In this document: positions 4,419-55,716 of the stretch, one piece after another
Position numbering within the stretch: position 1 is the stretch's first letter
Layout of the letters: every line of letters starts with the position of its first letter
NCBI GenBank assembly: GCA_030765235.1
Contig: JAVCCW010000010.1
Coordinates: 30,907-94,906, forward strand
Source of the DNA: Candidatus Gorgyraea atricola
GTDB taxonomy: Bacteria; Omnitrophota; Gorgyraeia; Gorgyraeales; Gorgyraeaceae
Direction: 5' to 3'
DNA length: 64,000 nucleotides
Notes under the pieces: generated by a model
What the model was told of the DNA's origin: nothing
Databases searched by the model: none
What the model saw: the letters and a program-made list of their open reading frames with translations, nothing else
Translations under genes and position numbers: made by a program

Positions 4419-5670
4419 ATATCGTCTTTATGATAGCTTGAGCTGGCTCTACTTCCTGTTGTCTTTGTTCACTCCCTTCAGATCCTGCTTCTGTTTCCTG
4501 TTGAGGGTCTTCTTTTCTAAAAATAGCCTTTAGTAATTCCTGGCCAGTTGAAACAGCAAGCTTTTCTATTACATAATCAATATCAGGCTTTATCGACATA
4601 TCACCAAGACTACCTCCGACATGAACAGGCATTGTTATCAGGCCTTGTGAATTCTGCAAATAGCTTAGCTCATAAACTGCGTCAACGCATGCCTCTGAAA
4701 GATCTTTAGGTATAAACAGTTCTGAATCCATATCAAGCCTTCCCCTGAGATCCAGATAACCGCTAGCCACTAGATAAAAAACATCTGACTCAATAGTAGT
4801 CTTCTTAAGAAATACCTTCCCATCCTTCATATCAAGATACCCTTTAATAGGCCTAAAAGAGGTATGATTGTCTTTTAAGAGCCCGCTGTAGTGTTCTGGC
4901 AGCTTGTTTTTTAACTTATACACAAGCCCGGGTAATATATTCTCGAGTCTTTCAAAAGCAACCACTAAAAGATTCATGTTCTTAAGCGCTGCCTTGTCCA
5001 GCTTTATACTGGCCCTGGCTGAAAGCGTATCAAGTAGCTTACGCACATCCAATCCTCTTGCTGAAAGATCCGCGTCTATTTCGAGCATACCTTCAAAGCG
5101 CGGAGCGCCTGGCCCAACATCTGGCAGAAACATGGAAACATCCATGCCCTGCAGCATGATCTCCATATCTGAATCCTGACTAGAAGACAAATTCCTTACA
5201 ATACCTTTGATAAAAAAAGCTCCTCCAGCAATAGACCCGGTAAGGCGGTTTATAATCAGGTTTTCTTCTGATATCTTTGCCCTTAATTCAACATCCTTAA
5301 AGCTATCCTTCAAGGGAAATCTATTCCCAAATTGCACATCAAGGACCTTGATAAACAGCCTATCTATCTGCAGCTTCCTCTTGATAAGCGGCAATATCCT
5401 TATGCGCGCCTCTATAGACACTGCCTCCATCATCGCATTAGACCAGGTCTTTTCTCTATCCTTTACAGAAATCTCATCTACCATAAGCGCCAGGCCTGGA
5501 AAAAAACTCAATGACACATCGTCTATCCTGACATCTTTATCTATCATCTCTTCTATTTTTTCTACTAAGATTCCTTTGTATTCATTAGGGTCAAATGTCA
5601 ATAGATACACTAAAGCGCCCACAACAACAACTATAAAAAGCAATACCACTATTATGAAAAATATCTTCAT
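4390..5670 (-). CDS. AsmA-like / DUF748-type membrane-anchored protein
   Basis: 426 aa; single N-terminal TM helix then long periplasmic domain; composition and layout resemble AsmA family; acidic Glu/Gln-rich tail. Confidence 0.4.
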   Translation of the reverse strand: MKIFFIIVVLLFIVVVVGALVYLLTFDPNEYKGILVEKIEEMIDKDVRIDDVSLSFFPGLALMVDEISVKDREKTWSNAMMEAVSIEARIRILPLIKRKLQIDRLFIKVLDVQFGNRFPLKDSFKDVELRAKISEENLIINRLTGSIAGGAFFIKGIVRNLSSSQDSDMEIMLQGMDVSMFLPDVGPGAPRFEGMLEIDADLSARGLDVRKLLDTLSARASIKLDKAALKNMNLLVVAFERLENILPGLVYKLKNKLPEHYSGLLKDNHTSFRPIKGYLDMKDGKVFLKKTTIESDVFYLVASGYLDLRGRLDMDSELFIPKDLSEACVDAVYELSYLQNSQGLITMPVHVGGSLGDMSIKPDIDYVIEKLAVSTGQELLKAIFRKEDPQQETEAGSEGSEQRQQEVEPAQAIIKTIFDILSAPNE

Positions 5671-5673
5671 GGA

Positions 5674-6759
5674 TTAACGTAACTCCTTCAGGCTCATTAA
5701 CAACTCGTTCTTTCTCTCTGAATAAGCAATGGCTGTTTCTTTTGTTATCCGCTTTTCCTTGTGTAGACATAGCAACACTTGATCAAATGTCTGCATGCCG
5801 TACAGGCTGCCATCCTTTATATAGTACTCTATCTCGTCTAGCTTACCTTCCCTGATCAGCTCCACTATAGTAGGTGTAGGGATAAGGACTTCAGTTGCAG
5901 GGACGCGACCCCCTTCGTCCTTTAAGGGAATCAGCCTTAAAGACAAAACGCCTTTTAGAAGCATTGATAACTGCATCCTTACTTCAGCATGCTGGTGCGG
6001 CTGGAAAAAATTAACTATCCTTTCTATGGTATGAACGCTGCTTATTGTATGTAGATTTGCTATCACCAGCTGCCCTGTCTCAGCAGCTGTCAGGGCAATT
6101 GACATAACCTGTGAGTTCCTTATGTCGCCTATAAAAATAACGTCGGGCGTCTGCAGCATGATGTATTCAAGCGCCTTCTGAAAACTCTCAGTATCTATGC
6201 CTATCTCTCTCTGAGTTATGATCGATTTTTTATCTTCATATATAAATTCTATTGGATCCTCAAGTGTAACTATATGCTTGGCCGTGGTCTTATTTATGTA
6301 TTCCAGCATGCTTGCTACTGTGGTAGACTTTCCACTGCCAGTAGTGCCAGTGATCAGTACCAATCCCCGCTTCTCACCACACAGACCCTCCAGTACCTTT
6401 GCTGGCAGATTTAGTTCTGCAAATGAAGGAATTTTTCCGCTGATCGCACGGATCACGACAACCGTAGACCCGCTCTGTTTAAAAATCGTTGCCCGGAATC
6501 TACCTACGTCATCCATACCAAAAGACACTACGCTCTCGTTTTGATCTTTAAAGACGCTTCTCTTGCTTCTGGTTATTATTTTATCCACTATATCATTTAA
6601 ATCCCTATCAGTAAGTATGTCTTTATCCTTAAATAACCCGCCATTGATCCTCATGCACACAGGACTGCCTGGTTTAAGAATAAGGTCTGACGCATTTTTT
6701 TCAAGCATCTCCTTTAATACATGAACAAGATTCATTGAAACACCCCTCGTTAAAAACAA
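5674..6759 (-). CDS. pilT: Type IV pilus retraction ATPase PilT/PilU family
   Basis: 361 aa; Walker A GTTGSGKSTT, Asp box, Walker B and His box arrangement of PilT; N-terminal MSxxELL-like region. Confidence 0.85.
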   Translation of the reverse strand: MFLTRGVSMNLVHVLKEMLEKNASDLILKPGSPVCMRINGGLFKDKDILTDRDLNDIVDKIITRSKRSVFKDQNESVVSFGMDDVGRFRATIFKQSGSTVVVIRAISGKIPSFAELNLPAKVLEGLCGEKRGLVLITGTTGSGKSTTVASMLEYINKTTAKHIVTLEDPIEFIYEDKKSIITQREIGIDTESFQKALEYIMLQTPDVIFIGDIRNSQVMSIALTAAETGQLVIANLHTISSVHTIERIVNFFQPHQHAEVRMQLSMLLKGVLSLRLIPLKDEGGRVPATEVLIPTPTIVELIREGKLDEIEYYIKDGSLYGMQTFDQVLLCLHKEKRITKETAIAYSERKNELLMSLKELR

Positions 6760-6819
6760 ACCACAGAGAACACAGAGATCTTTTTCAATTATAGTTTTCC
6801 TCTGTGCGCTCTGTGGTTT
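6758..6819. promoter_or_regulatory. Conserved palindromic intergenic element (CCACAGAG family), copy 2
   Basis: aaaccacagagaacacagagatctttttcaattatagttttcctctgtgcgctctgtggttt; lies between outer-membrane protein gene stop (6901) and pilT start (6759); minus-strand loop reads TATAAT. Confidence 0.5.
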
Positions 6820-6900
6820 CTTTTAAATCCTTTCATCATAAAAAAGGCGCAACGGATTCTGTAAATCCGCTGCGCCTTAATACTATTCATCTTAACTTAC

Positions 6901-7698
6901 TTAAAACTTGTATGAAATTCCTACGTTCAATGCCTCTTCATCTATGAACCTGCCTTCGATATTGATCGATAGCTGTTCGCTCTGCGGTGTTGCCTCTATC
7001 TTAGGTGTAATAGTTAAGCCTACAAAACCACCCAGATTCCTATCAGAACCCTTGCCTTTGCTGTCACTATACTGCTGAGGAGCAATAGTGTAGTCACTGC
7101 CAAGCTCTACATCTGAAAACTTTAATCCTACGTAAGGAGCAAAGACACCATTCTTCCACGCAAGTTCAACAGCGCCCTGAATCTCTTCATAATCACTGTT
7201 GGTCACATTTGTTAGTTCCGTAGTCGTGTATACTCTCGAATCTACTGTTACATCGTTAACAGCCAGATCCGTCGTCCTATAGCTTGCATTCGCGCCTATC
7301 TCAAAACCGTTATCCCATCGATAGATTAATGCGCTAGCCCCTACGCCAATGATAGCCTCTGAATCATATTTAACGGTGTGCTTTTCTCCCAAGATCGTAT
7401 AATCCAATTCCATGTCTGATGCTTCACCGATATCAACGTAAAGATTAAATCTGTCAAGCATGCTCAAGCCTATCCTGGCCATCACTGCCTGCATTTCAAA
7501 GTCGCCGCTGTCAACATCTATTCTTCTTTCCTGTACAGCATCATAAACAACTCCAACACTCAAGCCGATATTGTTATCTGCCCATAATTCACCTTCTACC
7601 GCATCTGCCTCTGAGGTAAGGCCAACTGGAGCCGCACATACTGTTGCAGCGAAACCAACAACAAACAAAACAGCTAATAAATATTTTACCATCCTCAT
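6901..7698 (-). CDS. Secreted outer-membrane beta-barrel protein (porin/OmpA-like barrel), C-terminal Phe
   Basis: 265 aa; signal peptide (AATVCA-AP); alternating hydrophobic beta-strand pattern; terminal ...GISYKF outer-membrane sorting signature. Confidence 0.5.
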   Translation of the reverse strand: MRMVKYLLAVLFVVGFAATVCAAPVGLTSEADAVEGELWADNNIGLSVGVVYDAVQERRIDVDSGDFEMQAVMARIGLSMLDRFNLYVDIGEASDMELDYTILGEKHTVKYDSEAIIGVGASALIYRWDNGFEIGANASYRTTDLAVNDVTVDSRVYTTTELTNVTNSDYEEIQGAVELAWKNGVFAPYVGLKFSDVELGSDYTIAPQQYSDSKGKGSDRNLGGFVGLTITPKIEATPQSEQLSINIEGRFIDEEALNVGISYKF

Positions 7699-7872
7699 TA
7701 TTTCCTCCTTGAAGTTAATAGATTACTTTATATATTTAACTTTTTTATTATTAGTTGCTTATTTATAGCTTATCCCATGAAGAATACTATTCCATCCCCC
7801 CTTTCTGTCTTGCATAAGATAATCAACGATAGCAATTATTAATTAAGTAGTAGTTTACACGGTGTTTTTAAA

Positions 7873-8570: not shown

Positions 8571-9644
8571 TTAAAATCCCCAGTTCAGGCTTGTATTAAA
8601 ACTAACGTCAGGGCTGGAGGCAGCGCTGATATTTTCAACAACCGCAAAATTCCACGACACGTCGGTCCTTTCCTTCCACCTATAATTAAAACCCAGGGCC
8701 CAGTCATGCGCGTCATTGTCCAGAGGATTTGTCTGGCTATATGAATAAGGCGTATTGTTGCCGGTCACCTGTGTGACAACAGAAAACCTCTCTGTAAAAA
8801 AATATTCCAGTGCCAGCATGTAAGAATAAAACTCCTGATCGATACCCAGCACTGAGAAAACATCGGGCTTTTCTATTCTCATGACACTGGCACCCGTGTA
8901 GACAAAAAGCCTGTCAAAGAATCTCTTATCTATTAAAATGCCAAAACCATAATCGAATTCGCCGCTCCCGATCAAATCATCCTCATCAGCTGTTGGAAAC
9001 TTGATCGCTGAGCGCACTGATATATTTGGAAAGAGCCAATGCCACTCGCTTTCCCTTAGCAGCTGATATTTAGCAGTTAGCACGACATCACCCAGGCCAT
9101 GCGTAGAAGTCTTTTGTTGTATGAGGTAGTTGCCGGGACCATACTTGAAACTGTAATCGAATTCGTACGACCCTTGACGCTCTCTTGAGCGAGGCGTCCT
9201 TGCTCCAATTCCATCCTCAAAGCCTTCTATAGCATTATCCAGATATCCACTGCACAGGCCTATATAAGGAACCTCTAATCCGATTTCCAGATTATCGTAA
9301 ACACCATACCTGAAATCAAGCGTGATCCTCTGGACCTCTAAGTCGATCTGGATGTCATAAAAAGATGAGATCGGCGTAAACGCGCTTACAGTGATGTTTG
9401 AAACAGTATAATCCGCATCTATTACAAATCTATTTCTCTCTACAACGCTTGCCTTGTCCGGCACCATCTGTAAATAGAAAAGATATAGCGGCATTTGATT
9501 TCGTATGGCTACCGGGCCGATCCCTGATACCTGATAAGATTCCTCATCTTCTTCTGGTTCATATAAATATGCAAAAGCACTGTCCAAAGACAAAAAACAA
9601 CTGACAAAAAACAACACCACGATAGCTGCCAAAAATACCTTCAT
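8571..9644 (-). CDS. Outer-membrane beta-barrel protein (start refined to MKVFLAAIVVLFF... signal peptide), C-terminal NWGF
   Basis: ORF track start at 9785 gives a non-signal N-extension; internal ATG at 9644 gives a classical signal peptide; C-terminal aromatic residue. Confidence 0.45.
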   Translation of the reverse strand: MKVFLAAIVVLFFVSCFLSLDSAFAYLYEPEEDEESYQVSGIGPVAIRNQMPLYLFYLQMVPDKASVVERNRFVIDADYTVSNITVSAFTPISSFYDIQIDLEVQRITLDFRYGVYDNLEIGLEVPYIGLCSGYLDNAIEGFEDGIGARTPRSRERQGSYEFDYSFKYGPGNYLIQQKTSTHGLGDVVLTAKYQLLRESEWHWLFPNISVRSAIKFPTADEDDLIGSGEFDYGFGILIDKRFFDRLFVYTGASVMRIEKPDVFSVLGIDQEFYSYMLALEYFFTERFSVVTQVTGNNTPYSYSQTNPLDNDAHDWALGFNYRWKERTDVSWNFAVVENISAASSPDVSFNTSLNWGF

Positions 9645-9702
9645 CCATAACCTCCGCGATCTTGAAAATGGTCTAATTATATGGTATACTTGTATTAGCC
9701 GA

Positions 9703-9790
9703 TAAGGGCAAACCCTAGAGAAATCAGGGGGCGCAAAGCCAACAGGCCTAAGTCCTTTAAACGGATATGGCGGCTGGGTTGCCAAGCGAT
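9703..9790 (+). ncRNA. Candidate c-di-GMP-I (GEMM) riboswitch aptamer, plus strand, no downstream plus-strand gene
   Basis: GGGCAAACC-cuagaGAAAucaggg-GGCGCAAAGCC followed by a hairpin carrying the canonical 11-nt GAAA tetraloop receptor halves CCUAAG ... UAUGG, then GGGUUGCC. This matches GEMM-I architecture (tetraloop hairpin, ACGCAAAGCC junction, receptor hairpin). Confidence 0.5.
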
Positions 9791-9802
9791 GAAAAGCCGA
9801 CG

Positions 9803-11311
9803 CTAATCGCCTTTATCGGCCTTTCTTATTGTCTTCCCCATGATTTCAGAAAACTCATCCTCCAGCACAAAAAAAGGAGCTACGTTGCACCCGGTAAAAC
9901 TCTTTACCTTATCTATTGCCTCAATATCCTTGGGATTTAACATAGCAAGGCTTACTACGTTCTTTTCCTTCTTAACTGGAATTACCCCATAATTCTTGAT
10001 CAAATCAATAGGTATCTTGCTTATAACTGCTTTTAATTCTCCATTCTGCTCTAATCTTCTTACATCAAAATGCGGGACATTCAACTGTGACTCCAGGGCC
10101 CTTGCTATGTCGCCTGAACTCGCCAAGCCAAGACCTACAATGCTCTGACCGATCTTCTGGCCTGTTGACCAATGTTTACTTAAAGCTGCCTCGAGCTGCT
10201 GAGAAGTCAAAACATGTGATTCAACCAGTATCTGGCCCAATGGCTTGTGCCTGAATTCAGGCACCACCTTAGAGGCCTTTTCAGAGACAATAGACTGATG
10301 CGAAGCTAAAAACTCTTTCTTCATCATGGTCCTGCGATTTACAAGAAAATTACTTCCAGGCAAGGCCTTCAGGTATCCCTTTATCTCAGCGATTATCTCC
10401 ATGAGCTCCACGATATTTTGAAATCCATAATCTTTATTATTAGCTATTGCCACAGAAAGGCTCATGAGCGGTGTATTTGTTATGTTGCCCCTTCTATCCT
10501 TTGAAATGATATGGCCCAGACCCCTGTCTTCTTTGGTGTAATGAAAAGGCATAAGCCTGTTAAAGCTCAATATGGACTCCGATGCTATTAATCTGTCGCG
10601 CTCAGGCGTGGTCACCACTACAAAATCATCGCCTCCAATATGCCCCACAAAGTCATCCTTGTTCCCGTATTTCTTAACTGTCCTTGAAACAATATGGGCA
10701 GTCTGGCGAATAACCGCATCGCCCTTCATGTAGTTATATTTGTCATTAAAGGATTTGAAGTTATCAATGTCGTAATACGCGACAGAAAAAATCGCGTCCT
10801 CTTCGATCTTTGACTGGATAACCTTTTCTATGCGTCTATTTCCAGGGAGCCTTGTGAGCGCGTTCGCGTGCAGCTGGTGCGTAGTCCTGCGCAGCGCCAT
10901 TTCCATCCTGACCTCCAGGTCAATAGGATCAGGTGGGTTCGCGATATAATCGTCCACGCCCTGCTCTATCTCGAGCATGCGCTTGCGTATCTGTTTTTTA
11001 TCAATGAGTATTATTACCGGTATGTGTGCGGTAAGAAAATCTTCTTTCAAGACCTTTGAGACCTCGAAACCGTCTATCTTCGGAATATTGCAGTCTATAA
11101 TAATAATATCAGGGTGCGCTCGCCGAACCAGCTCAAGCACAGATGCCCCATCTGAAGCAATAATAACTTCGTAATCCCAAGCATTTAAAAGATAAACAAG
11201 TATATCTACTATCTTTTGCTCATGCTCTGCTAACAATACCTTTTTATTCAGTCCGTTCATAAGATCATTATAACGTACAATATTTCCAAGGTCAACATTT
11301 ACCCCACCCAA
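9803..11311 (-). CDS. Response-regulator receiver + non-canonical GGDEF (GGDDF) + C-terminal MshEN/T2SSE_N (c-di-GMP-binding) domain protein
   Basis: 502 aa; REC with phospho-Asp context IIIIDCNIPKIDG; GGDEF-like domain with GHIGGDDFVV; C-terminus LEAALSKHWSTGQKIGQSIVGLGLASSGDIARALESQLNVPHFD resembles GspE/MshE N-terminal domain. Confidence 0.7.
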   Translation of the reverse strand: MGGVNVDLGNIVRYNDLMNGLNKKVLLAEHEQKIVDILVYLLNAWDYEVIIASDGASVLELVRRAHPDIIIIDCNIPKIDGFEVSKVLKEDFLTAHIPVIILIDKKQIRKRMLEIEQGVDDYIANPPDPIDLEVRMEMALRRTTHQLHANALTRLPGNRRIEKVIQSKIEEDAIFSVAYYDIDNFKSFNDKYNYMKGDAVIRQTAHIVSRTVKKYGNKDDFVGHIGGDDFVVVTTPERDRLIASESILSFNRLMPFHYTKEDRGLGHIISKDRRGNITNTPLMSLSVAIANNKDYGFQNIVELMEIIAEIKGYLKALPGSNFLVNRRTMMKKEFLASHQSIVSEKASKVVPEFRHKPLGQILVESHVLTSQQLEAALSKHWSTGQKIGQSIVGLGLASSGDIARALESQLNVPHFDVRRLEQNGELKAVISKIPIDLIKNYGVIPVKKEKNVVSLAMLNPKDIEAIDKVKSFTGCNVAPFFVLEDEFSEIMGKTIRKADKGD

Positions 11312-34228: not shown

Positions 34229-35968
34229 TTACAGTCTCTTTAGAAGCACGAGGCTGAATTCATTGCTGGTAAAGGGCCAGGGTCCGAATTGTTTCTCAAT
34301 CACATAATGGTCTGCTAGATAGCGCATGATGTCCTGCGCATAATCCATGCCGAACCGCGCAGCCCCATATTCTGATGTCAGGCGCCTCAAGATAACAACA
34401 TATTTTACATCTTTATCCTCGAGTTCCTTGGATAGATTTTTTTCGCAGTCTGGCGTCAATGAAATCAAAAGTGGCAAAAACGCATACTGGTGCAGCGGGC
34501 TATCCCTTTCAGAGAGAAAATTTATGGTCAGGCCCTCTGGAAATACTGCAAGCTTATCAGACGGGTCAGTGTTTTTACGCAAATACTCCACTAATTGTTT
34601 GCACCTATAATAACCAGGATGCACCAGCATTGCGCCCCTTGGAGAAGATATCTTCATTGTGCGATTTTTATACCTATAAAGCGAGACAGGTACATGGGCC
34701 ATGATAAAAGATATTGATAGAACTGTAAAAGCAAATCTATAAAAAGCACGCGTGTCTTTCCTCTGCGATATACGTGGAACTATCCTCAGGAAAAAGATGT
34801 AATAACATAGCATGCCAGGGGCAAGCAGATAAAAACCACTATGTTCTGCCCTGACATTGAAAAACATGCGCGCCAATAAAAGAAGTGAAAAAATAGAAAA
34901 AACCGCCAAAAACAGGTCTTGCCTGTCTTTCTTTGCGAAATATCTTCGACAACTGACAATAAACACTAATATGCAGACAATAGGTACGCATCGATATTGC
35001 GCATTATAATGAAAGAATTCTTTTTGAAACAAAACAGTAGTAGCTGCGACAACTAATGTCACTCCAATGCCAATGAGGACCTTCTTTGTTGTTGAGATTT
35101 TTTTTACCAGAGAAATCAACCGGCCTGAGGCAAAGAATACAGCGCTCATAGCTACATAATACAAGCTTGTTTTTAGTATGGCTGCGATGTTTCTCCAAAA
35201 ATCAATAGTGCCAAGGGTCTGTCCAGTAAAAGGCCCTTTTATATCTAAGTTTATTAAAAGGGCTTCTTTGCTTGCTACAGTACTGCCTGTAATAATGCCA
35301 AAGAAACCGTAGACGATAGCTGCGGCAAGGGCTGGAAAAAGGCAATAGGCCGCTACCCTTTTAAGCCTATCCTGTTTCTGGCTATCAAGGATTATGCCAA
35401 TAAATATTGAGACCATAAGCACGATGCCTATCTCTACTCGAGTAATCAGCAAAAGCGCTATGAATAAACTGGAGAAGTATGTGCGGCTGCGATAGTAGAA
35501 AAATAAGGCTAAAAACGCTAACGTGATAGCGTGGATCGAGGCATAGCTATAGGGGATGATGTAATTGAAGATGCCTGCCTCATAGTGCTGGCTGAACGCG
35601 AATACAAAAAGAAATGTAAGCACGCATAGCGTTGAAAAAAGCGCGTTTAAAAATATGCGGGATGTCTTGTATAGGAGCACGCACATGAGAGTAGCTGTAA
35701 GTGCACCGCTTATTATAAAAGCGCGCATATGAACGCCAAAGATCATGCACAGAAGACTATTAAAGTATGGTGAAAAAGGCCCGAATTCATAAAATATATC
35801 CCTGTACGGCAATTTGCCAGAAAGGATACTTAAAGGCAAATAAAGCTCCCTACCTGTATCTATCAACAAACTCCCCCACCTGAGCCAGGATACACTAAAT
35901 AAATAAAAACCAGCTCCCATTATAATAAGAGCTGGTATCCATCCTCTCTTCCACAACCGCTTAACCAT
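34229..35968 (-). CDS. Polytopic membrane protein with C-terminal soluble domain (GT-C-like glycosyltransferase candidate); start refined to MVKRLWKRGW
   Basis: ORF track N-terminus (36187) reads through the MITE copy; internal ATG at 35968 begins the first TM helix; about 13 TM helices then about 170 aa soluble tail. Confidence 0.45.
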   Translation of the reverse strand: MVKRLWKRGWIPALIIMGAGFYLFSVSWLRWGSLLIDTGRELYLPLSILSGKLPYRDIFYEFGPFSPYFNSLLCMIFGVHMRAFIISGALTATLMCVLLYKTSRIFLNALFSTLCVLTFLFVFAFSQHYEAGIFNYIIPYSYASIHAITLAFLALFFYYRSRTYFSSLFIALLLITRVEIGIVLMVSIFIGIILDSQKQDRLKRVAAYCLFPALAAAIVYGFFGIITGSTVASKEALLINLDIKGPFTGQTLGTIDFWRNIAAILKTSLYYVAMSAVFFASGRLISLVKKISTTKKVLIGIGVTLVVAATTVLFQKEFFHYNAQYRCVPIVCILVFIVSCRRYFAKKDRQDLFLAVFSIFSLLLLARMFFNVRAEHSGFYLLAPGMLCYYIFFLRIVPRISQRKDTRAFYRFAFTVLSISFIMAHVPVSLYRYKNRTMKISSPRGAMLVHPGYYRCKQLVEYLRKNTDPSDKLAVFPEGLTINFLSERDSPLHQYAFLPLLISLTPDCEKNLSKELEDKDVKYVVILRRLTSEYGAARFGMDYAQDIMRYLADHYVIEKQFGPWPFTSNEFSLVLLKRL

Positions 35969-36044
35969 ATCGCCTATTCTACTATATAACCAATATAGGT
36001 GCAAATATATTATTACATTATTTAAATAATCGCGTTGCTTTTTT

Positions 36045-36312
36045 AAGCTAAATGGAAGGCCTGTTCGCTCAGGTGAAAATTTCCCTCCTCGCTTCGCCCC
36101 GCCCTTTCTACGAAAGGCCGGGGCTTCGCTCGGAAACAGGTCGTCTTTTATTCCGCATTTTGGCGGGACTGAAAAAACTTCACCCACACCATAGGTGTGG
36201 GTGTCGAACAGTTTTCAGCCTTTTGGGCTCATATAATGTGCCAAAGAAACCGCCAAAATGCTACATAAAAGACTAAATTTTCAAATTCGCGCCCAGACCT
36301 TCCATTTAGCTT
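36045..36312 (+). mobile_element. MITE-like element, about 268 bp, family copy 1 (TIR aagctaaatggaaggcctg...; internal hairpins)
   Basis: 23-bp imperfect terminal inverted repeats; shares more than 85% identity with 48841-49096 and, in reverse complement, 50026-50293; contains perfect hairpin cacccacaccataggtgtgggtg; no credible ORF. Confidence 0.6.
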
Positions 36313-36369: not shown

Positions 36370-37752
36370 TTATATGTCATTGTTATGGAGTGCTGTAATC
36401 TTTTCAACTAGCCCTTGTTCTGGCTTTAGAATCTTAATCCCGTCCTCTGCCGCAGAACCTGTCTGGTCATTAGAAGCTATATTTTGTGAAACTGGAAAAC
36501 TAATTACAACATCTGCCCCTTCCTGATTATTACCCTTGATATCCATGAACACGCCATAGTCTCCAAGTTTATAAATAATTGTAGCTCCTATACCACTACC
36601 TCGTTGCTCTTTTTCAGAATATACACCATTATCACTGAATATAACTTCTACGGCTTTTTCATCCTTTTGTTGTGTGATTTCATTTGTCTTTATGATTATA
36701 ACTCCTTTTTTTATTGATTTTTGTAATAGTCGCTCGATTATAGCTTGTCTTGCATCGTTGATTAAATTTGCCCATACTTGATACATAAAAAGAGAATTTG
36801 TATAGACATGTGGTATATTTTCATCTAGTTCCAACTTTATCTGTGCATACGTATCATTCTTGTATAATTCTACTAATTTCATCAGACTTTCATTGATATC
36901 TACTAGAGTAGTCTCTTTACTTTCTCTTATATATTTTCCTATCTCCTGGAAGATTATAAAATTAATTAATGGGGTATTTATTCTTTCAACATTTTCTCTA
37001 AAAGAGGTAATTTTTTGATTATTCTTGTATTTGTCAAGAAAGGTTTCTGCTTGAGACATAGTATCTAATAGCTCACTATAAAAAGCTATAAAATTATCTA
37101 TTAGAGCTACGATAACTTTAGGATTTAACGATTTTAACTTTTCTAATTTCCTAAAAAGCATATTCCAGTGACTATATGGTTCCTCGTAAGAATCTAATGC
37201 CTTTGACAGCTGGCTAGCTCTTCGAATGTCAACATCCTCTTTCTTCTCAACCAATTCTACTTCTAAAAATTTTCTAATTTCATACGTGTAATTCGTTATC
37301 TGTCCTAAAGTATGCGCGAAATAATAATTCAGAGTTGCTCTTATGGTAGGAAAGGCATCGCTTTTAACTTCGGAATAATCTAAAGAATCCAGCTCAGCAG
37401 AAGCCAAGTTATACAGCATGCCCACTTCTTGCAGCAACTCTCCTGGGCCTGCATCCTCTCTAATAAAATCTGAACTAAGATTAAAATGCTTCAAGACTTT
37501 TGTTGTTAAATACTTTCTAAGTTCTTTATAGTCAATTTGAAGCCACTCTTCCTCCTGATAGGTTTTAAGCTTAGCTATTATCTCTTTTGCCTCTTTTTTT
37601 ATTTTATCTCGGGCAATCTTATTTGCGACTTTGACTTCGTTATCTTTATCGTTTCTTATAGGAACTCTCAGGCAATACGCCTCCTGACACGCCCCTACCC
37701 CTATTAGTATCAATATTAAAGCTATAATGCATTGTTTTCCAATCTTCATCAT
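36370..37752 (-). CDS. Signal-peptide/anchor protein with C-terminal histidine-kinase-like ATPase (HATPase_c) domain; no obvious DHp H-box
   Basis: 460 aa; N-terminal hydrophobic segment then CLRVP motif; C-terminal N-box (ANLINDARQA), G1 (DNGVY) and G2 (GSGIGATI) boxes. Confidence 0.5.
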   Translation of the reverse strand: MMKIGKQCIIALILILIGVGACQEAYCLRVPIRNDKDNEVKVANKIARDKIKKEAKEIIAKLKTYQEEEWLQIDYKELRKYLTTKVLKHFNLSSDFIREDAGPGELLQEVGMLYNLASAELDSLDYSEVKSDAFPTIRATLNYYFAHTLGQITNYTYEIRKFLEVELVEKKEDVDIRRASQLSKALDSYEEPYSHWNMLFRKLEKLKSLNPKVIVALIDNFIAFYSELLDTMSQAETFLDKYKNNQKITSFRENVERINTPLINFIIFQEIGKYIRESKETTLVDINESLMKLVELYKNDTYAQIKLELDENIPHVYTNSLFMYQVWANLINDARQAIIERLLQKSIKKGVIIIKTNEITQQKDEKAVEVIFSDNGVYSEKEQRGSGIGATIIYKLGDYGVFMDIKGNNQEGADVVISFPVSQNIASNDQTGSAAEDGIKILKPEQGLVEKITALHNNDI

Positions 37753-38226: not shown

Positions 38227-38264
38227 AAGTTGCAAAATGGGTGAAAGTAGGATATACTCGATGC

Positions 38265-38951
38265 ATGAAACTTTCTATTTTGATCCCGGCGTATAATGAA
38301 GAGAGGTTTATTCAGAAGGTCTTGGGGGATATAAAATCAGTCCGGATTTCGGCTGAAAAAGAGGTTATCCTTATAGATGATGGGTCGACTGATAAGACCG
38401 TGGAAAAGGCACAGGCTGTAATGCCTGGTATAAGAGTAGTGCATCATGTAAAAAACCAGGGCAAAGGCGCAGCGCTCTCTACGGGCATTGCGCATGCAAC
38501 AGGAGATATCCTGTTGATCCAGGACGCGGATCTGGAGTATAGCCCACACTCCTACCCTGACCTCCTAAAGCCATTCTTTGAGCAGAATGCAGACGTAGTA
38601 TATGGCTCGCGATTTCTGAATAAAAAACGGCCGGAAAACATGAAACTGGCGTACTTTTTGGCAAATCGCTTTGGAACCATGCTCACCAATCTCCTGTATG
38701 GCACGCATGTCACAGATGCCATGACATGCTTCAAGGTCTTCAAGGCTCACACAATTAAAGGCGTAAAATTTACAAGCAAGGGTTTTGGCGCTGATTCAGC
38801 AGAACTTACTGCCAGGATAGCTAAAGGAAAATTTAATATAAAAGAAGTGCCCATCCCTTACAAGGCAAGGACATTTGAGGAAGGAAAAAAATTCCACCCT
38901 ATCTACTCACTGAACGTCTTGTGGGCTATAATCAGATACCGATTTATCTGA
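38265..38951 (+). CDS. GT2 glycosyltransferase, dolichyl/polyprenyl-phosphate mannose (Dpm1)-like
   Basis: ORF opens with GTG at 38241; first ATG at 38265 gives [16 protein letters not shown]; DDGSTD; DAD motif ([10 protein letters not shown]). Confidence 0.75.
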
Positions 38952-42461: not shown

Positions 42462-43610
42462 CTATTTTGGTAATGTAAAATAAAATTGACTACCCTTGCC
42501 TAATTCGCTCTTGACCCACATCCTTCCGTTGTGAAGCGTAACTATATCCTTTGCTATGGGTAGCCCCAGGCCCGTGCCTTCTTTTTTCTCAGCAGTCACC
42601 CTTGTAAACTTGTCAAATACTGTGTCTATGTTCTCAGGGGCTATGCCTTCACCCGTATCTGAGACCTCCACCATTATTTCTTTCTCAAGAGTAGTACTTT
42701 TTACTGTTATCTTACCACCCTCAGGGCTATACTTTATGGCATTGCTTAAAAGATTGATGAATACCTGAGTTGTCTTGTCTATGTCAGCGTTTATACCAGG
42801 CATATCCCTTGCAAGATCTTTGTTAAGGGTCTGCTTTTTGTCTTTCATTATCTTGCTAAAAACAGCCAGGTTCTCTTCTATTATCTTATTTATGTTAAGG
42901 TTCCCCTTCTTTAGTTTCATCTTACCCGACTCTATCTTTGATATATCCAGCAGATCATTTACAAGCCTGGAGAGCCTATTTGCTATATTTACAGCGCCGT
43001 CGAGCATATCCTTTTGCTCTGGGGTCACTTTGCCGAGCCCTCCTTTAATAACCAGATCTGTATTACCTTTTATGATAGTAAGAGGTGTTCTGAATTCATG
43101 TGCTACATTCGCAACAAAGTCAGATTTGATCCTATCTAATTCCTTCAGTTTTCTATTCGCTGCTTCCAGCTCAGTGTTCTTAGCAGCGATCTCTTTCTGC
43201 AGGCGCTCTTTTTCCTTCTGCGCCTCAAACGCCCTTAATGCATTATGGATCACGAGGCTCAGACCTTTCTCAAATCCTTTTTCCTTTATTACATAGTCAT
43301 ACGCGCCCTGTCTCATTGCCAGCGTGGCAAATTCTTCATCACCTTTGTCTGCCATCATTATAACAGGGCCCTGCAGGTCTTTATATTGTAAATCAGAGAG
43401 TATTTCCAGGCCATTCGCGCCAGGCAGGTTATAGGAAAGGAGGATGACATTGAACGCTTCTTCGTCGACCTTTTTAAGCAGATTCCCCTCTTCTTGTAAC
43501 CACATCAACTCATACGAAACACCTGACGGCTTAGAAAGGGCCTCTTTTATTTTTAATATATTCTGTGAATTAAATTCTATTATCAATATCTTTATAATCT
43601 TATCTTCCAT
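42462..43610 (-). CDS. Hybrid sensor histidine kinase: N-terminal receiver-like domain with Asp-to-Ser substitution + HisKA + HATPase_c
   Basis: 382 aa; receiver fold but phospho-acceptor position reads LLSYNLPG; H-box HEFRTPLT; N, G1 (DTGEGI), G2 (GTGLGL) boxes. Confidence 0.75.
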   Translation of the reverse strand: MEDKIIKILIIEFNSQNILKIKEALSKPSGVSYELMWLQEEGNLLKKVDEEAFNVILLSYNLPGANGLEILSDLQYKDLQGPVIMMADKGDEEFATLAMRQGAYDYVIKEKGFEKGLSLVIHNALRAFEAQKEKERLQKEIAAKNTELEAANRKLKELDRIKSDFVANVAHEFRTPLTIIKGNTDLVIKGGLGKVTPEQKDMLDGAVNIANRLSRLVNDLLDISKIESGKMKLKKGNLNINKIIEENLAVFSKIMKDKKQTLNKDLARDMPGINADIDKTTQVFINLLSNAIKYSPEGGKITVKSTTLEKEIMVEVSDTGEGIAPENIDTVFDKFTRVTAEKKEGTGLGLPIAKDIVTLHNGRMWVKSELGKGSQFYFTLPK

Positions 43611-52445: not shown

Positions 52446-54995
52446 TTACATTACTTCAATTATAGGAACTGGAGTTGCATTTACTGTGGCCACCAGCGTA
52501 TCAACTGCAGTATTGCACTCAGTACCTGAATCATCCTTAACTGTTAGAACCACTTTATAAAGGCCTATGCCCTTGTAAGCATGCCTTACCTTTGTCCCTT
52601 GCGCAGTTTGGCCATCACCAAAATCCCATGTATACGTAAGGTTATCATTATCTGGATCAAATGAATCTGACGCATCAAATTCAACCTCGTCATTAACGCA
52701 GATCAAAAGATCCCCGCCAGCCTCTGCTACAGGAGGTGTGTTTACGTTAAGGTAATGCACCTTTGTCGAGCCTGAGCAATCTGAATTTTTACCATCATCA
52801 ACAAACAGCGTTGCTTTATAGAGCCCACCCTTTGCATAATTATGCTTTACGTTAGCTCCGCTTTCAGTAGTACCATCGCCAAAATCCCAAACATAATCCA
52901 GCTTATCTCCGTCAGGATCGTTCGATAACGCGCCGTCAAACTTTATCCCCTCGTCAACACAGGCAATGTCCTTAGAGCTTATGTCTGCGGTGGGATTGGA
53001 GTTGACATTCACTGAAATGGCATCTGTCGCGCTTGAACACTCTGCGCCAGCACCATCATCTACCTTAAGAGTAGCATTATAAAGGCCTCCTTTTGCATAC
53101 TGATGAGAGACCTTTTTTCCTCTGGCTGTTTTTCCATCGCCAAAATCCCATAGATAGCTAAGAGTATCCCCGTCATTGTCAAACGACAAAGAGGCATCAA
53201 ACTCTGCCTTCTCTGTCAGGCATATGTTTATATCGTTTCCTGCGTTAGCCATTGGCGCCCTGTTTAAGTTAACAAGCTTTGTCGCAGTTGACTTATTGCA
53301 ATCTGTATAGGTATTGTCGGTAACAAGGAGTTTAGTCGCGTACTCTCCGCCCCTTTCATACCTATGAGTGACTACCTTGCCTTCCTCTGTCTCGCCATCA
53401 CCGAAATCCCAGACATAAGTCAGATTATCATTATCCGCGTCCTTTGACTTTGACGCGTCAAAAGTGACTTCCAGGGGATCATTAGGATCTTTCTTGCACA
53501 ACATTATATCTTTACCCGCGTCAGCGATAGGTGCGGTATTTACTGCTACATTTAATCTATCCACGCCTGTATCGCACATGGTCCCTGAATCATCGACTAC
53601 AGTAAGCGCGACTTGATAATCTCCGCCTTTAGCGTATTTATGAGAGACCTTTACGCCTTCAGCTGTCTCGCCATCGCCAAAATTCCATTTGTATGTCAGA
53701 TTATCTTCGGGACTATCTGTTGACTGTGTGCCATCGAATAGTATCTCTGTATCAACACAGGTCACATTAGGGCCGTCTGCTATAGCGCATGGCGGCTGAT
53801 TGACTTTTACGACCTGCTGAGTCGAAGCTGTATTACAATCCACCTCTGAGGCATCTGTAACTGTCAGCTTGACAAGATATTTTCCAGCATCCTTATAGGT
53901 ATGCATGTTCTTTAACTGTGTGCTGGTAGTACCATCACCAAAATCCCAGAAATACGCAAGGGTCTGATCATCTGGATCGTAAGACTTTGAACCATCAAAT
54001 GTAAATGTATTACATGAAAGCTTTGACTCCATCCATGGCTCTTCCTTTGCCTTAGCCTTAGTAGGCCGCTCAACAAAGACCCTCTTAGGTCCTCCTGCGC
54101 CAGGTGTAAAAAATACAGGAACTGCCGCGCCATCGCCTGTTGTCAGATACATCGCCATGTTTGCATTGGGCTGCCTGTCCTTTGTTATTTCATATACCCA
54201 TCTCTTGCCAGCATCAGATGGCAGAACATCTACTTCAGTATTTGCCCATATGCCGGTCCCAGAACCTTTTATACTGTAAGAACGAGATGCGCTTACGAGC
54301 TCTATATCTCCTCCGGTCGCGTCCAGATCATAATTGTACTCGATTATCTTTGCCGCGTCCGCGGGTATTGCGGGATAAAGCGCCATCTTTGTTCCGCGCT
54401 TCTCTGATAGTCTTAATGAAAGCGCGTAGCTGAATGCCTCCATTGTATCCGGTGATATCTCAAGGGCAAAGACATTGTTGTCATCCCCTGACAGCCCTTC
54501 AGCAACTATCTTAAAATATCTGAAATTTCCTACTTTCTCACCCTTGTCCGCTTCTATAGGAGAAAAGTGATAAAACTTTTTGTCATAGGATTCATCTTCT
54601 CCGAACTCCTGGGAATCCAGAAGCGTACCTTCAAGAAAATCTACGATCTTTGCCTCGCTTATCCCTGCTATGGATGAATACGCTTTCTTTCCGCCAAAAA
54701 TAGAAAAGCGGGTCGAGGTATTCCATTTTCCACTCTTTTCATCAATATAATCACCGACATCAGGATCATAGATGGATATTTCTATGTTACCAGTGTAATT
54801 CTCAGGAACTCTCAAGAATACGACTTGGGGCGCCTTTTTTGCGCCATAACTTTTTCTTCCATCCTCGCCAAAGGTATATAAATACCTGAGCTTACTCTCT
54901 TCTGGTGGTATTCTATAGCAAAGAGCATCCTTTACTATAGCAAAGCTTAAAAACAACACTGATGCGATTATGATATGCAATGTCTTCCTGCACAT
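52446..54995 (-). CDS. Secreted protein with at least seven tandem PKD domains
   Basis: 849 aa; signal peptide; repeated [YT]xWDFGDG[TQE]T blocks at about 85-95 aa spacing. Confidence 0.75.
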   Translation of the reverse strand: MCRKTLHIIIASVLFLSFAIVKDALCYRIPPEESKLRYLYTFGEDGRKSYGAKKAPQVVFLRVPENYTGNIEISIYDPDVGDYIDEKSGKWNTSTRFSIFGGKKAYSSIAGISEAKIVDFLEGTLLDSQEFGEDESYDKKFYHFSPIEADKGEKVGNFRYFKIVAEGLSGDDNNVFALEISPDTMEAFSYALSLRLSEKRGTKMALYPAIPADAAKIIEYNYDLDATGGDIELVSASRSYSIKGSGTGIWANTEVDVLPSDAGKRWVYEITKDRQPNANMAMYLTTGDGAAVPVFFTPGAGGPKRVFVERPTKAKAKEEPWMESKLSCNTFTFDGSKSYDPDDQTLAYFWDFGDGTTSTQLKNMHTYKDAGKYLVKLTVTDASEVDCNTASTQQVVKVNQPPCAIADGPNVTCVDTEILFDGTQSTDSPEDNLTYKWNFGDGETAEGVKVSHKYAKGGDYQVALTVVDDSGTMCDTGVDRLNVAVNTAPIADAGKDIMLCKKDPNDPLEVTFDASKSKDADNDNLTYVWDFGDGETEEGKVVTHRYERGGEYATKLLVTDNTYTDCNKSTATKLVNLNRAPMANAGNDINICLTEKAEFDASLSFDNDGDTLSYLWDFGDGKTARGKKVSHQYAKGGLYNATLKVDDGAGAECSSATDAISVNVNSNPTADISSKDIACVDEGIKFDGALSNDPDGDKLDYVWDFGDGTTESGANVKHNYAKGGLYKATLFVDDGKNSDCSGSTKVHYLNVNTPPVAEAGGDLLICVNDEVEFDASDSFDPDNDNLTYTWDFGDGQTAQGTKVRHAYKGIGLYKVVLTVKDDSGTECNTAVDTLVATVNATPVPIIEVM

Positions 54996-55329: not shown

Positions 55330-55716
55330 ATGAAGAAACTCATAATTATAGCACTAACATTATCCCTCTTATCCGTCTTTCCAGGCAATGCTGGCTCAAC
55401 TCACGCTATATATAAAGGTACAGCATCATGGTATTCCCAGACTGATCCTGGAATCTTAGAGACAACTGCCAACATGGAGATCTTTGATGATTCAAAGCTA
55501 ACATGTGCCATGTGGGACCTGCCTTTTAATACCCTTCTAAAAGTCACGAATCTCGATAATAATAAATCTATATATGTAAGGGTAAATGACAGGGGTCCTG
55601 CTAAGAGACTAGTGAATCGTGGCAGGATAATAGATCTCTCAAAAAGGGCATTCTCTTATTTAGACGATCTAGGTAAAGGGTTGATTAAAGTCAGAGTGAA
55701 GATTGTAAAGCTATAA
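55330..55716 (+). CDS. RlpA-like double-psi beta-barrel (DPBB) secreted protein
   Basis: 128 aa; signal peptide; GTASWY ... NTLLKVTNLDNNKSIYVRVNDRGP ... GRIIDLSKRAF, hallmark of RlpA/3D-domain DPBB proteins. Confidence 0.75.
   Translation: MKKLIIIALTLSLLSVFPGNAGSTHAIYKGTASWYSQTDPGILETTANMEIFDDSKLTCAMWDLPFNTLLKVTNLDNNKSIYVRVNDRGPAKRLVNRGRIIDLSKRAFSYLDDLGKGLIKVRVKIVKL

Follow-up and report, generated by a model that had tools for sequence, protein, structure and literature searches.

The locus analysed here raises two linked questions: what does a protein do that carries a receiver (REC) domain, a GGDEF-fold domain and a receptor-type MshEN domain on one chain, and what does a riboswitch aptamer for cyclic diguanosine monophosphate (c-di-GMP) do at the 3′ end of its gene, on the opposite strand? 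Both elements lie in a 64,000-nucleotide (nt) stretch of Candidatus Gorgyraea atricola (Omnitrophota; contig JAVCCW010000010.1, positions 30,907 to 94,906), hereafter the window. An initial annotation, made from the letters of the window, had presented the protein as a c-di-GMP receptor linking phosphorelay input to type IV pilus dynamics. The reading we favour, to which we assign a probability of about 0.45, just short of an even chance, is that the gene encodes a diguanylate cyclase devoid of its own product-inhibition site (I-site), which would sense its product through a tethered MshEN domain, and that a convergent c-di-GMP aptamer RNA shares its terminator.

A REC-GGDEF-MshEN protein family of Omnitrophota

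The reported open reading frame (ORF; 9803-11311, minus strand) is present in the ORF list and reads as 502 residues from a TTG codon. Because homologues are ~485 residues long and a promoter lies inside the N-terminal extension, we assign the start to the ATG at 11260; homologues begin at this same methionine, and the TTG start at 11311, whose supposed extension contains the consensus promoter, was ruled out. The coding sequence (9803-11260, minus strand; stop codon TAG at 9803-9805) thus specifies a 485-residue REC-GGDDF-MshEN protein. Two numberings are used below, that of the 502-residue TTG reading for Pfam spans and that of the 485-residue ATG reading for the AlphaFold2 model.

A Pfam scan upheld the domain composition given in the initial annotation, with three matches that all pass the curated cut-offs. 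Response_reg spans residues 25-133 (E = 1.2e-16), GGDEF residues 151-238 (E = 5.5e-12; profile positions 5-92 of 161 only) and MshEN (PF05157) residues 411-492 (E = 3e-12; 46.8 bits against a cut-off of 23.1). TIGR00254, the generic GGDEF domain model, scores 56.4 bits (cut-off 37.4) and is alone in passing among NCBIfam models, no equivalog model reaching its cut-off. The annotated lack of an ATPase also holds, as no match to PF00437 (T2SSE ATPase) was obtained and the chain stops 10 residues past MshEN. The AlphaFold2 model, built with 95 relatives, has a mean predicted local distance difference test (pLDDT) score of 81; in it, three domains are folded and a 27-residue linker is disordered. 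Foldseek matched its REC-GGDEF part to WspR, DgcR and PleD, and its C-terminus to PilF GSPII-A.

More than 85 clusters (90% identity) share the three Pfam domains at 64-93% identity, and every source-named cluster belongs to Candidatus Omnitrophota. A scan of one genome per species returned 111 loci, which puts the family in 111 species or more, almost all of them bearing the label Omnitrophota; the 80 loci that were kept are all from this phylum, some of them under the mislabel 'uncultured Planctomycetia'. Residue counts reported below refer to 95 family members, and locus surveys to the 80 kept loci, comprising 34 long-form and 46 other loci. The long form has ~485 residues and a complete MshEN domain, and the short form, represented by Ca. 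Velamenicoccus archaeovorus LiM, has ~400 residues and ends directly after the MshEN_N four-helix bundle. Since no assembly occurs twice in the locus list, the two forms look like orthologues of different clades.

When the MshEN part alone was searched against 1.8 billion cluster representatives, more distant members emerged, P0152, P0154 and P0167 (34-41% identity), which share the REC-GGDEF-MshEN architecture and a GHIGGDDF motif. The MshEN architectures listed by Wang et al. include GT2-MshEN, MshEN-REC, REC-MshEN_N-UNK, MshEN-HD-GYP-REC and others; REC-GGDEF-MshEN is not among them, and our literature search on this architecture or on c-di-GMP signalling in Omnitrophota found nothing specific. 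The domain order itself, described in the initial annotation as unusual for placing a receptor at the C-terminus without an ATPase, has precedents in NfrB and in several non-ATPase architectures of Wang et al.

The GGDEF-fold domain keeps most substrate-site residues and lacks the I-site

The GGDEF-fold domain (10331-10861, minus strand; delimited by Pfam, TIGR00254 and Foldseek) contains the non-canonical signature GGDDF at residues 226-230 of the 502-residue numbering (nt 10622-10636). This signature, already pointed out in the initial annotation, occurs in 95/95 members, so that the Glu at the fourth position of [GAS]G[DE]E[FY], the catalytic base, is missing throughout. Residues were mapped onto PleD through HMMER alignments. 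The equivalents of PleD D327 (D164), K332 (K169), N335 (N172), D336 (D173) and K442 (K298) are each conserved in 95/95 members, and that of D344 (D181) in 94/95. PleD R359, the first residue of the RxxD I-site, is replaced by Asn, with Arg in 1/95 only, and PleD H340 is replaced by Tyr (95/95).

Degenerate GGDEF receptors usually retain the c-di-GMP-binding RxxD I-site. The reverse pattern found here, an invariant substrate site together with an absent I-site, argues for a functioning nucleotide site rather than a dead domain, and because the guanine-reading Asn and Asp are kept, GTP would be the expected substrate. A reading of the protein as a pure receptor, as first proposed, passes over both the invariant catalytic-site residues and the missing RxxD. 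Structurally, the domain reaches a Foldseek template-modelling (TM) score of 0.77 against the GGDEF domain of WspR, and its second half carries an inserted β-hairpin.

Only one GGDDF domain that lacks a partner EAL domain has been assayed in the literature, that of Geobacter GSU1937, and it proved active; a fusion of this protein makes both c-di-GMP and cyclic GMP-AMP (cGAMP), and a change to GADDF abolishes both activities (PMC8835794). Among the distant members, the P0154 gene overlaps a STAS-PilZ gene in locus L082 (region 5001-7710), a second PilZ gene comes next and a third lies 4 kb upstream. This gene string has the appearance of a typical source-plus-receptor arrangement, which we count in favour of an enzyme.

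The C-terminal domain is a likely c-di-GMP receptor

The GGDEF and MshEN domains are joined by a disordered linker (10250-10330, minus strand; pLDDT <50 at residues 311-337 of the 485-residue numbering) that is variable in the family alignment. Beyond it, residues 355-489 align with the complete GSPII/MshEN domain of Thermus PilF (residues 8-141; E = 3e-31), and the C-terminus aligns with Vibrio cholerae MshE (5HTL; E = 1e-8) as well as with Geobacter and Myxococcus PilB. Because the whole C-terminus aligns with PilF and MshE, both MshEN subdomains are present, namely the c-di-GMP-binding four-helix bundle fold (MshEN_N; 10085-10243, minus strand) and the T2SSE_N1-like α/β subdomain (MshEN_C; 9836-10084, minus strand; long form only). 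The AlphaFold2 model accordingly has helices at 341-393 and then an α/β unit, and the C-terminal match to PF05157 agrees with what the initial annotation had proposed.

The MshEN signature consists of two copies of RLGxx(L/V/I)(L/V/I)xxG(L/V/I)(L/V/I)xxxxLxxxLxxQ joined by five residues (PMC5013675). The corresponding segment in the window is PLGQILVESHVLTSQQLEAALSKH-WSTGQ-KIGQSIVGLGLASSGDIARALESQ, with a spacing of exactly 24+5+24. Motif II (KIGQSIVGLGLASSGDIARALESQ) agrees with the relaxed form published by Wang et al., as it does in ~80/95 members. Motif I keeps the Leu-Gly pair and all hydrophobic positions, its family form being [KR]PLGQILLE, and carries Pro at position 1 and His at both positions 10 and 24. 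Across the family, position 1 is Pro in all matching members, position 10 is Gln, His, Lys, Gly or Asn, and position 24 is His. The MshEN binding motifs envisaged in the initial annotation are thus borne out in their spacing and in motif II, and departed from at these three positions of motif I.

Characterised domains offer precedents for such departures. Motif I of NfrB is RPLGQILLENQVIT, with L490 and G491 forming the Leu-Gly that follows Pro, and NfrB binds c-di-GMP with a dissociation constant of about 1 µM. PilF GSPII-C binds c-di-GMP with Pro335 as the first residue of one of its motifs, and PilF GSPII-B binds at 6 nM with Lys and Leu at two motif-first positions; PilF GSPII-A is a non-binder, mainly through a degenerate motif II. 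MshEN_N alone is sufficient to bind c-di-GMP, and it is this subdomain that the long and short forms of the family both retain. We regard c-di-GMP binding by the MshEN domain of the window protein as likely.

The receiver domain is atypical

Alignment of the receiver (10913-11239, minus strand) to PleD REC1 and REC2 revealed that it has the acceptor Asp and is without three of the five signature residues, T87 being replaced by Ile, K109 by Asn and the acidic pair reading Glu-His. In CheY numbering, the family shows Asp at D57 (Asp56; 93/95 members), Ile at T87 (Ile86; 94/95), Asn at K109 (Asn108; 79/95, Lys being confined to short forms), Glu at D12 (Glu12; 89/95) and His at D13 (His13; 80/95). 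The sequence PPDPIDLE, in the α4-β5-α5 region, is invariant in the family. Among the distant relatives, P0167 keeps the complete canonical quintet and P0152 is missing the acceptor Asp, which makes a true response regulator the probable ancestor. In Omnitrophota, the domain looks like an atypical or pseudo-receiver that would act mainly in dimerisation.

The proposed phosphorelay input is accordingly doubtful: the acceptor Asp stands, while the T87, K109 and D13 positions are replaced and no histidine kinase gene lies next to the gene. The nearest in the 64-kb window encodes a hybrid REC-HisKA-HATPase protein (42462-43610, minus strand); it adjoins a gene for a patatin-like phospholipase and is unlinked to the REC-GGDEF-MshEN locus.

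A convergent c-di-GMP-I aptamer is co-conserved with the long-form gene

A c-di-GMP-I (GEMM-I) aptamer occupies 9697-9786 on the plus strand (RF01051; 68.8 bits against a gathering threshold of 35; full length, 1-87). It is opposite in strand to the REC-GGDEF-MshEN gene, and its 3′ end lies 16 nt from the stop codon, in agreement with the GEMM element placed at the gene's 3′ end by the initial annotation. Three points go beyond that annotation: the riboswitch is antisense, it is strictly co-conserved with the gene, and it overlaps the last codons.

An Rfam scan located an aptamer just past the stop codon and on the opposite strand in 11/11 long-form loci (54-67 bits). A covariance model built from these 11 loci and used on all 80 found it in 31/34 long-form loci, with 29 copies complete, one cut by a contig end and one weak. 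One of the other three loci ends too early to judge and two have lost the aptamer, leaving 31/33 informative loci. By this survey the aptamer is the gene's only strictly conserved partner.

The aptamer has its own promoter, TTGAAA-N17-TATACT with an extended -10 TG (9662-9690, plus strand; 10/12 matches), which is kept in 29/29 aligned loci. The aptamer core (invariant in 12 aligned copies), the promoter and the following 45 nt are almost invariant; the proteins differ by up to 36%. In 12/12 aligned copies, G replaces the conserved A of GGG-A-CGCAAAGCC; GGCAAA retains its G and GCC its C. We take the replaced A to correspond to A47 of the Vc2 riboswitch, intercalated between the two guanines, and the kept G and C to Vc2 G20 and C92, which read the two guanines; the window aptamer would presumably be an A-to-G ('GGC') variant. 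One relative's aptamer scores best as RF03167, c-di-GMP-I-GGC, a variant for which, to our knowledge, no ligand has been established. The second aptamer stem contains, in most relatives (L006-L030), an insertion of ~50 nt that forms an extra hairpin, and the window shares the short 90-nt form with its closest relatives, L001, L002, L005 and L031.

Downstream of the aptamer follows GAGCGAUGAAAAGCCGA(A/C)GCU-N4-GCCUUUAUCGGC(U/C)U(3-8), that is, an A-tract, a hairpin and a U-tract. In the window this expression platform, delimited by the 29-locus alignment and by folding, is GAAAAGCCGA...GCCUUUAUCGGCC plus a U-rich tail (9791-9830, plus strand). Its hairpin is terminator-like in both directions, and a simple terminator scan made no call at this position because the loop exceeds 8 nt. 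The 3′ strand GCCUUUAUCGGC (9809-9820) is complementary over 12-13 bp to the 5′ leader AGCCGAUAAGGGC (9697-9709), and the unconstrained minimum-energy fold pairs the RNA ends (-51 to -71 kcal/mol). When the aptamer is constrained to its Rfam fold, a closing helix of 10 bp (-41.7 kcal/mol) is still preferred over the local hairpin (-33.0 kcal/mol). Both alternative helices end directly before the U-rich tract, and the on/off logic is therefore illegible from sequence.

Among the aligned loci, no conserved plus-strand ORF follows the aptamer, and in the window the next plus-strand ORF of at least 110 residues starts at 38241. A 5′-untranslated-region (UTR) riboswitch serving a plus-strand gene or small ORF was considered and rejected: a 57-residue ORF (9767-9940) and an MKSRR mini-ORF are unconserved, the ATGs of both being missing in several loci. 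Among the riboswitch families surveyed, the c-di-GMP family has the strongest antisense tendency at gene 3′ ends (PMC9943018). In the literature we found no description of a conserved aptamer-gene pairing with coding overlap.

The RNA element and the last codons share the same DNA

The distance between the stop codon and the end of the RNA model is exactly 7 nt in at least 18 loci, the proteins of which end in K-A-D-K-G-x. The last eight codons of the window gene, I-R-K-A-D-K-G-D (9806-9829, minus strand), are thereby doubly used: the antisense of AAG GCC GAU AAA GGC supplies the helix of the RNA with its 3′ strand, and the preceding Lys codons yield the U-tract. Codons GCC, GAT, AAA and GGC show zero synonymous change in 19 sequences, and the stop codon is TAG in 18/19; the invariant residues of GGDDF, PPDPIDLE and FKSFNDKY use two to four codons each. 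The C-terminal tail is disordered in the AlphaFold2 model, and in locus L004, which has lost the aptamer, it is changed to KEDNNNS. Because the codons are frozen, the tail is disordered and the L004 tail diverged after aptamer loss, the conservation pattern indicates that the protein tail is held by selection on the RNA.

In the tail of the window protein, an Arg codon (AGA) stands in place of one Lys codon and weakens the U-tract. Further into the gene, synonymous-site variation is flat (0.6-0.9) up to approximately residue 472; with variation this uniform, a longer antisense RNA or an overlapping ORF within the MshEN-coding region is without support.

Transcription unit and genomic neighbourhood

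A sigma-70-type promoter, TTGACC-N17-TATAAT (11267-11295, minus strand; 11/12 matches), ends 6 nt before the ATG at 11260, upstream of which there is no Shine-Dalgarno sequence. Most long-form loci (~24-26 by eye) follow the same plan, with TTGAC(C/T)-N17-TATAAT ending 6-8 nt before the ATG and no Shine-Dalgarno sequence. Short-form genes are without this promoter and are located within gene strings. The REC-GGDEF-MshEN mRNA is predicted to be leaderless and would therefore have no 5′ UTR to house a conventional riboswitch.

The conserved downstream neighbour is a DUF3187 outer-membrane protein gene (8571-9644, minus strand; Pfam E = 2.9e-24), the start of which lies just beyond the aptamer promoter. 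From 9644 the product begins with the signal-peptide-like MKVFLAAIVV, preceded by GGAGG. The longer ORF 8571-9785 (404 residues) was rejected, its N-terminal 47 residues being an artefact that runs across the aptamer and its promoter (9645-9785). For the DUF3187 gene there is room only for a promoter that overlaps the aptamer promoter back to back.

Continuing along the minus strand, the window encodes the DUF3187 protein, an RluB-like pseudouridine synthase, a β-barrel outer-membrane protein, PilT (TIGR01420, 396 bits) and an AsmA protein, so that three genes separate the REC-GGDEF-MshEN gene from PilT. In long-form loci generally, the DUF3187 gene comes after the aptamer, with AsmA-family and PEBP-family genes further on; in L004 it directly follows the REC-GGDEF-MshEN gene. 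The block of RluB, outer-membrane protein and PilT genes recurs in ~12/~24 informative related loci, and PilT, present in only about half of the long-form loci, was discarded as a conserved partner. The link to PilT suggested in the initial annotation is weakened to this extent: the gene is there in the window, with unrelated genes in between, and its company is not constant.

Genes upstream of the REC-GGDEF-MshEN gene vary among loci, and in the window they form a large glycan-biosynthesis cluster. This glycan/polysaccharide cluster (11299-41556) includes several radical-SAM/SPASM and B12-radical-SAM genes, NeuB-cupin, DegT, GtrA/GtrB-like, YfhO-like and GT2/GT9 genes and genes for thiamine pyrophosphate (TPP) enzymes, and two large proteins encoded in it (34229-36187 and 36370-37752) have no Pfam match. 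No other GGDEF, EAL, HD-GYP or PilZ gene was found within the window. The window has ~41% G+C and a GC skew that is negative throughout, and 52/54 of its ORFs of at least 110 residues are on the minus strand. Its only three plus-strand features are the aptamer RNA, a GT2 gene (38241-38951) and a DPBB/lytic-transglycosylase-like gene (55330-55716). An 849-residue protein with six PKD repeats (52446-54995, minus strand) is unlinked to the REC-GGDEF-MshEN locus.

A model of the locus and the alternatives to it

In the model that we favour, a cytoplasmic WspR/DgcR-like REC-GGDEF protein would most likely still make c-di-GMP from GTP at its GGDDF active site, with the degenerate receiver serving mainly as a dimerisation module and two GGDDF domains condensing two GTP. 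The usual RxxD product inhibition would have been lost, and an MshEN receptor on a flexible 27-residue linker would stand in its place. The MshEN_N four-helix bundle would capture the product in cis, and this capture could either shut the enzyme off, replacing the I-site, or switch the MshEN_C surface for a partner. What the sequences show directly is the domains, the motifs, their conservation, the co-occurrence of gene and aptamer and the double use of the last codons; that the protein is catalytic, that it binds c-di-GMP and which sign either feedback has are inferences.

The RNA layer would be specific to one Omnitrophota clade, in which a gene with a consensus promoter and a leaderless mRNA may share its terminator with the convergent RNA. 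That RNA, ~135 nt long and with its own strong promoter, would pair its 5′ leader with the strand opposite the gene's last codons; transcription could stop at that point, giving a small RNA that binds c-di-GMP and overlaps the mRNA 3′ end, or continue into antisense RNA. Either outcome would give a gene without a 5′ UTR a c-di-GMP input at the RNA level. A more ambitious version, which we judge improbable, is a three-layer homeostat in which the fused MshEN domain replaces the I-site, a ligand-stabilised helix forms in the last codons and the aptamer controls the cyclase mRNA in cis-antisense from its 3′ end. If it held, a riboswitch would be regulating, by cis-antisense, the enzyme that makes its own ligand.

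A number of observations weigh against the favoured model. Catalytic or phosphate-binding positions are altered in the GGDEF-fold domain: PleD E371 is Asp (95/95), R366 is His (94/95) and R446 is Ser (94/95, mapped by eye across a one-residue insertion). Pfam aligns the first half of the GGDEF model only, and PA3258, a GGDDF-EAL protein, is inactive as a cyclase (PMC8835794). In motif I of the MshEN domain, R9 and Q32, which are reported to be pivotal in MshE, are replaced by Pro and His, and the Gly at position 10 (MshE Gly18) is replaced by His; the best-matching solved domain is the non-binder PilF GSPII-A, though motif II is intact here. On the RNA side, the two species without the aptamer (L004, 2100-2270; L027, 4190-4800) keep the long-form gene, our covariance model found the aptamer in 0/46 other loci, and Rfam found none in 11 short-form or 4 divergent loci. 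The closing helix has no covariation support, both strands being invariant. Finally, 4-8 loci have a second hairpin between the RNA terminator and the gene stop, showing that the overlap is not universal.

The main rival, rather unlikely in our estimate, keeps essentially the initial proposal minus the phosphorelay. The protein would be a pseudo-enzyme whose dead GGDDF domain serves as a GTP sensor or dimer scaffold, and it would act as a c-di-GMP effector, using the surface of MshEN_C to dock on a platform protein of the type IV pilus or of type II secretion. The N1 domain of GspE binds GspL, which lends this idea some plausibility, and the MshEN domain is closest to PilF and PilB, with PilT four genes downstream in the window and in ~12 related loci. 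The invariance of the E371 to Asp, R366 to His and R446 to Ser changes, the half coverage by Pfam and the inactivity of PA3258 also count in favour of this rival. A dead domain sits poorly, however, with substrate- and metal-binding residues kept in 94-95/95 members and with the absence of the I-site typical of receptors. The docking surface fares no better, since short forms are without MshEN_C, PilT is missing in about half of the long-form and all of the short-form loci, RluB and outer-membrane protein genes intervene, and the window contains no pilB, pilM or pilC gene.

A different alternative leaves the cyclase untouched and detaches the RNA from it. The aptamer may belong to an independent small RNA that is terminated, binds c-di-GMP as a sponge or trans sensor and lies adjacent to the gene through inherited synteny and a shared bidirectional terminator. 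Bdellovibrio merRNA is a precedent (PMC3627812), and the consensus-like promoter, the conserved terminator-like element, 5′ and 3′ ends that pair like those of stable small RNAs and the lack of a conserved downstream ORF all suit such an RNA. Synonymous variation is normal until the last ~8 codons, which implies that no functional RNA extends further in, and some loci give the gene its separate hairpin. We regard this alternative as quite possible, if short of probable. Mere adjacency does not readily account for a position and orientation kept in 31/33 informative loci while upstream genes vary, nor for an RNA that occurs only where the long-form gene exists. The coding tail is moreover fused to the RNA element at a fixed 7-nt stop spacing in at least 18 loci, and the antisense tendency of the c-di-GMP family in the published survey (PMC9943018) also speaks for a tie to the gene.

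It is very unlikely, in our view, that the whole module signals with another cyclic dinucleotide through a co-evolved variant cyclase, aptamer and MshEN motif. In favour of this idea, all three parts deviate, invariantly, at ligand-contacting positions and one relative's aptamer scores best as c-di-GMP-I-GGC, and Geobacter provides a precedent in which GGDEF enzymes and GEMM-I aptamers have switched to cGAMP (PMC8835794). Against it, the cyclase domain has the guanine-specifying residues equivalent to N335 and D344, the latter being Ser in Hypr cGAMP synthases; the aptamer retains the G and C that we take to be guanine readers; and Pro-first MshEN motifs bind c-di-GMP in NfrB and PilF GSPII-C.

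Comparison with known systems

If correct, the favoured reading would describe a new build of product feedback in a diguanylate cyclase, with a tethered MshEN domain in place of RxxD, and a second case, this time clade-wide, of a GGDDF site under enzymatic constraint. With the RNA, its promoter, its terminator and its only conserved neighbour contained in ~1.7 kb and ~30 natural variants of the aptamer-gene unit available, the locus would also offer a clean case for studying what c-di-GMP riboswitches in antisense or orphan positions do. That the last codons serve both as protein tail and as RNA helix shows selection at the RNA level on coding sequence. Omnitrophota are uncultivated and often ultra-small, and a conserved single-copy c-di-GMP module provides an entry point to their signalling.

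The protein has its best structural and profile matches in WspR, PleD and DgcR, which it resembles in its succession of REC, helical linker and GGDEF and in keeping Asn and Asp for substrate binding, the metal-binding Asp and Lys442. It differs from them in having GGDDF for GG[DE]EF, no RxxD, His for Arg366 and Ser for Arg446, a receiver without the Thr and Lys switch residues, and an extra C-terminal MshEN domain. Geobacter GSU1937, a Hypr enzyme, is the only reported active enzyme with a GGDDF signature; unlike the protein described here, it has Ser at D344, makes cGAMP, possesses a transmembrane N-terminus and lacks MshEN.

For the C-terminal half, MshE, PilB and PilF share the fold and the 24+5+24 motifs, and GSPII-C and GSPII-B supply the precedent for Pro- or Lys-first motifs, but the window protein has no T2SSE ATPase, carries MshEN at its C-terminus and lacks Arg9, Gly18 and Gln32 in motif I. 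A closer parallel is Escherichia coli NfrB (GT2-MshEN), a c-di-GMP-activated glycosyltransferase in which a C-terminal MshEN domain, likewise without an ATPase, controls the N-terminal enzyme domain. Motif I hardly differs between the two, being RPLGQILLENQVIT in NfrB and KPLGQILVESHVLT here, and the NfrB model matches residues 332-441. The enzyme domain of NfrB is a membrane glycosyltransferase in place of GGDEF, and its c-di-GMP comes from a separate cyclase, DgcJ, whereas the present protein combines the putative source and the receptor in a single chain. Bdellovibrio Bd2402 (REC-MshEN_N-UNK), compared by its listed architecture, combines REC with an MshEN_N-only receptor and so resembles the short form, although in the present family a GGDEF-fold middle domain precedes MshEN_N.

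On the RNA side, merRNA and 3′-end c-di-GMP riboswitches share with the present element a c-di-GMP-I aptamer, the absence of a downstream ORF, an own promoter and a convergent gene at less than 500 nt. The element described here differs in that its target is a GGDEF-MshEN gene, in that the arrangement is conserved across ~30 species, in that the closing helix or terminator lies within the convergent gene's final codons, and in its A-to-G aptamer. The concept of an antisense c-di-GMP riboswitch is already known, and REC-GGDEF cyclases and MshEN receptors are also known kinds; in this Omnitrophota locus, the three c-di-GMP parts are packed in one conserved 1.7-kb unit.

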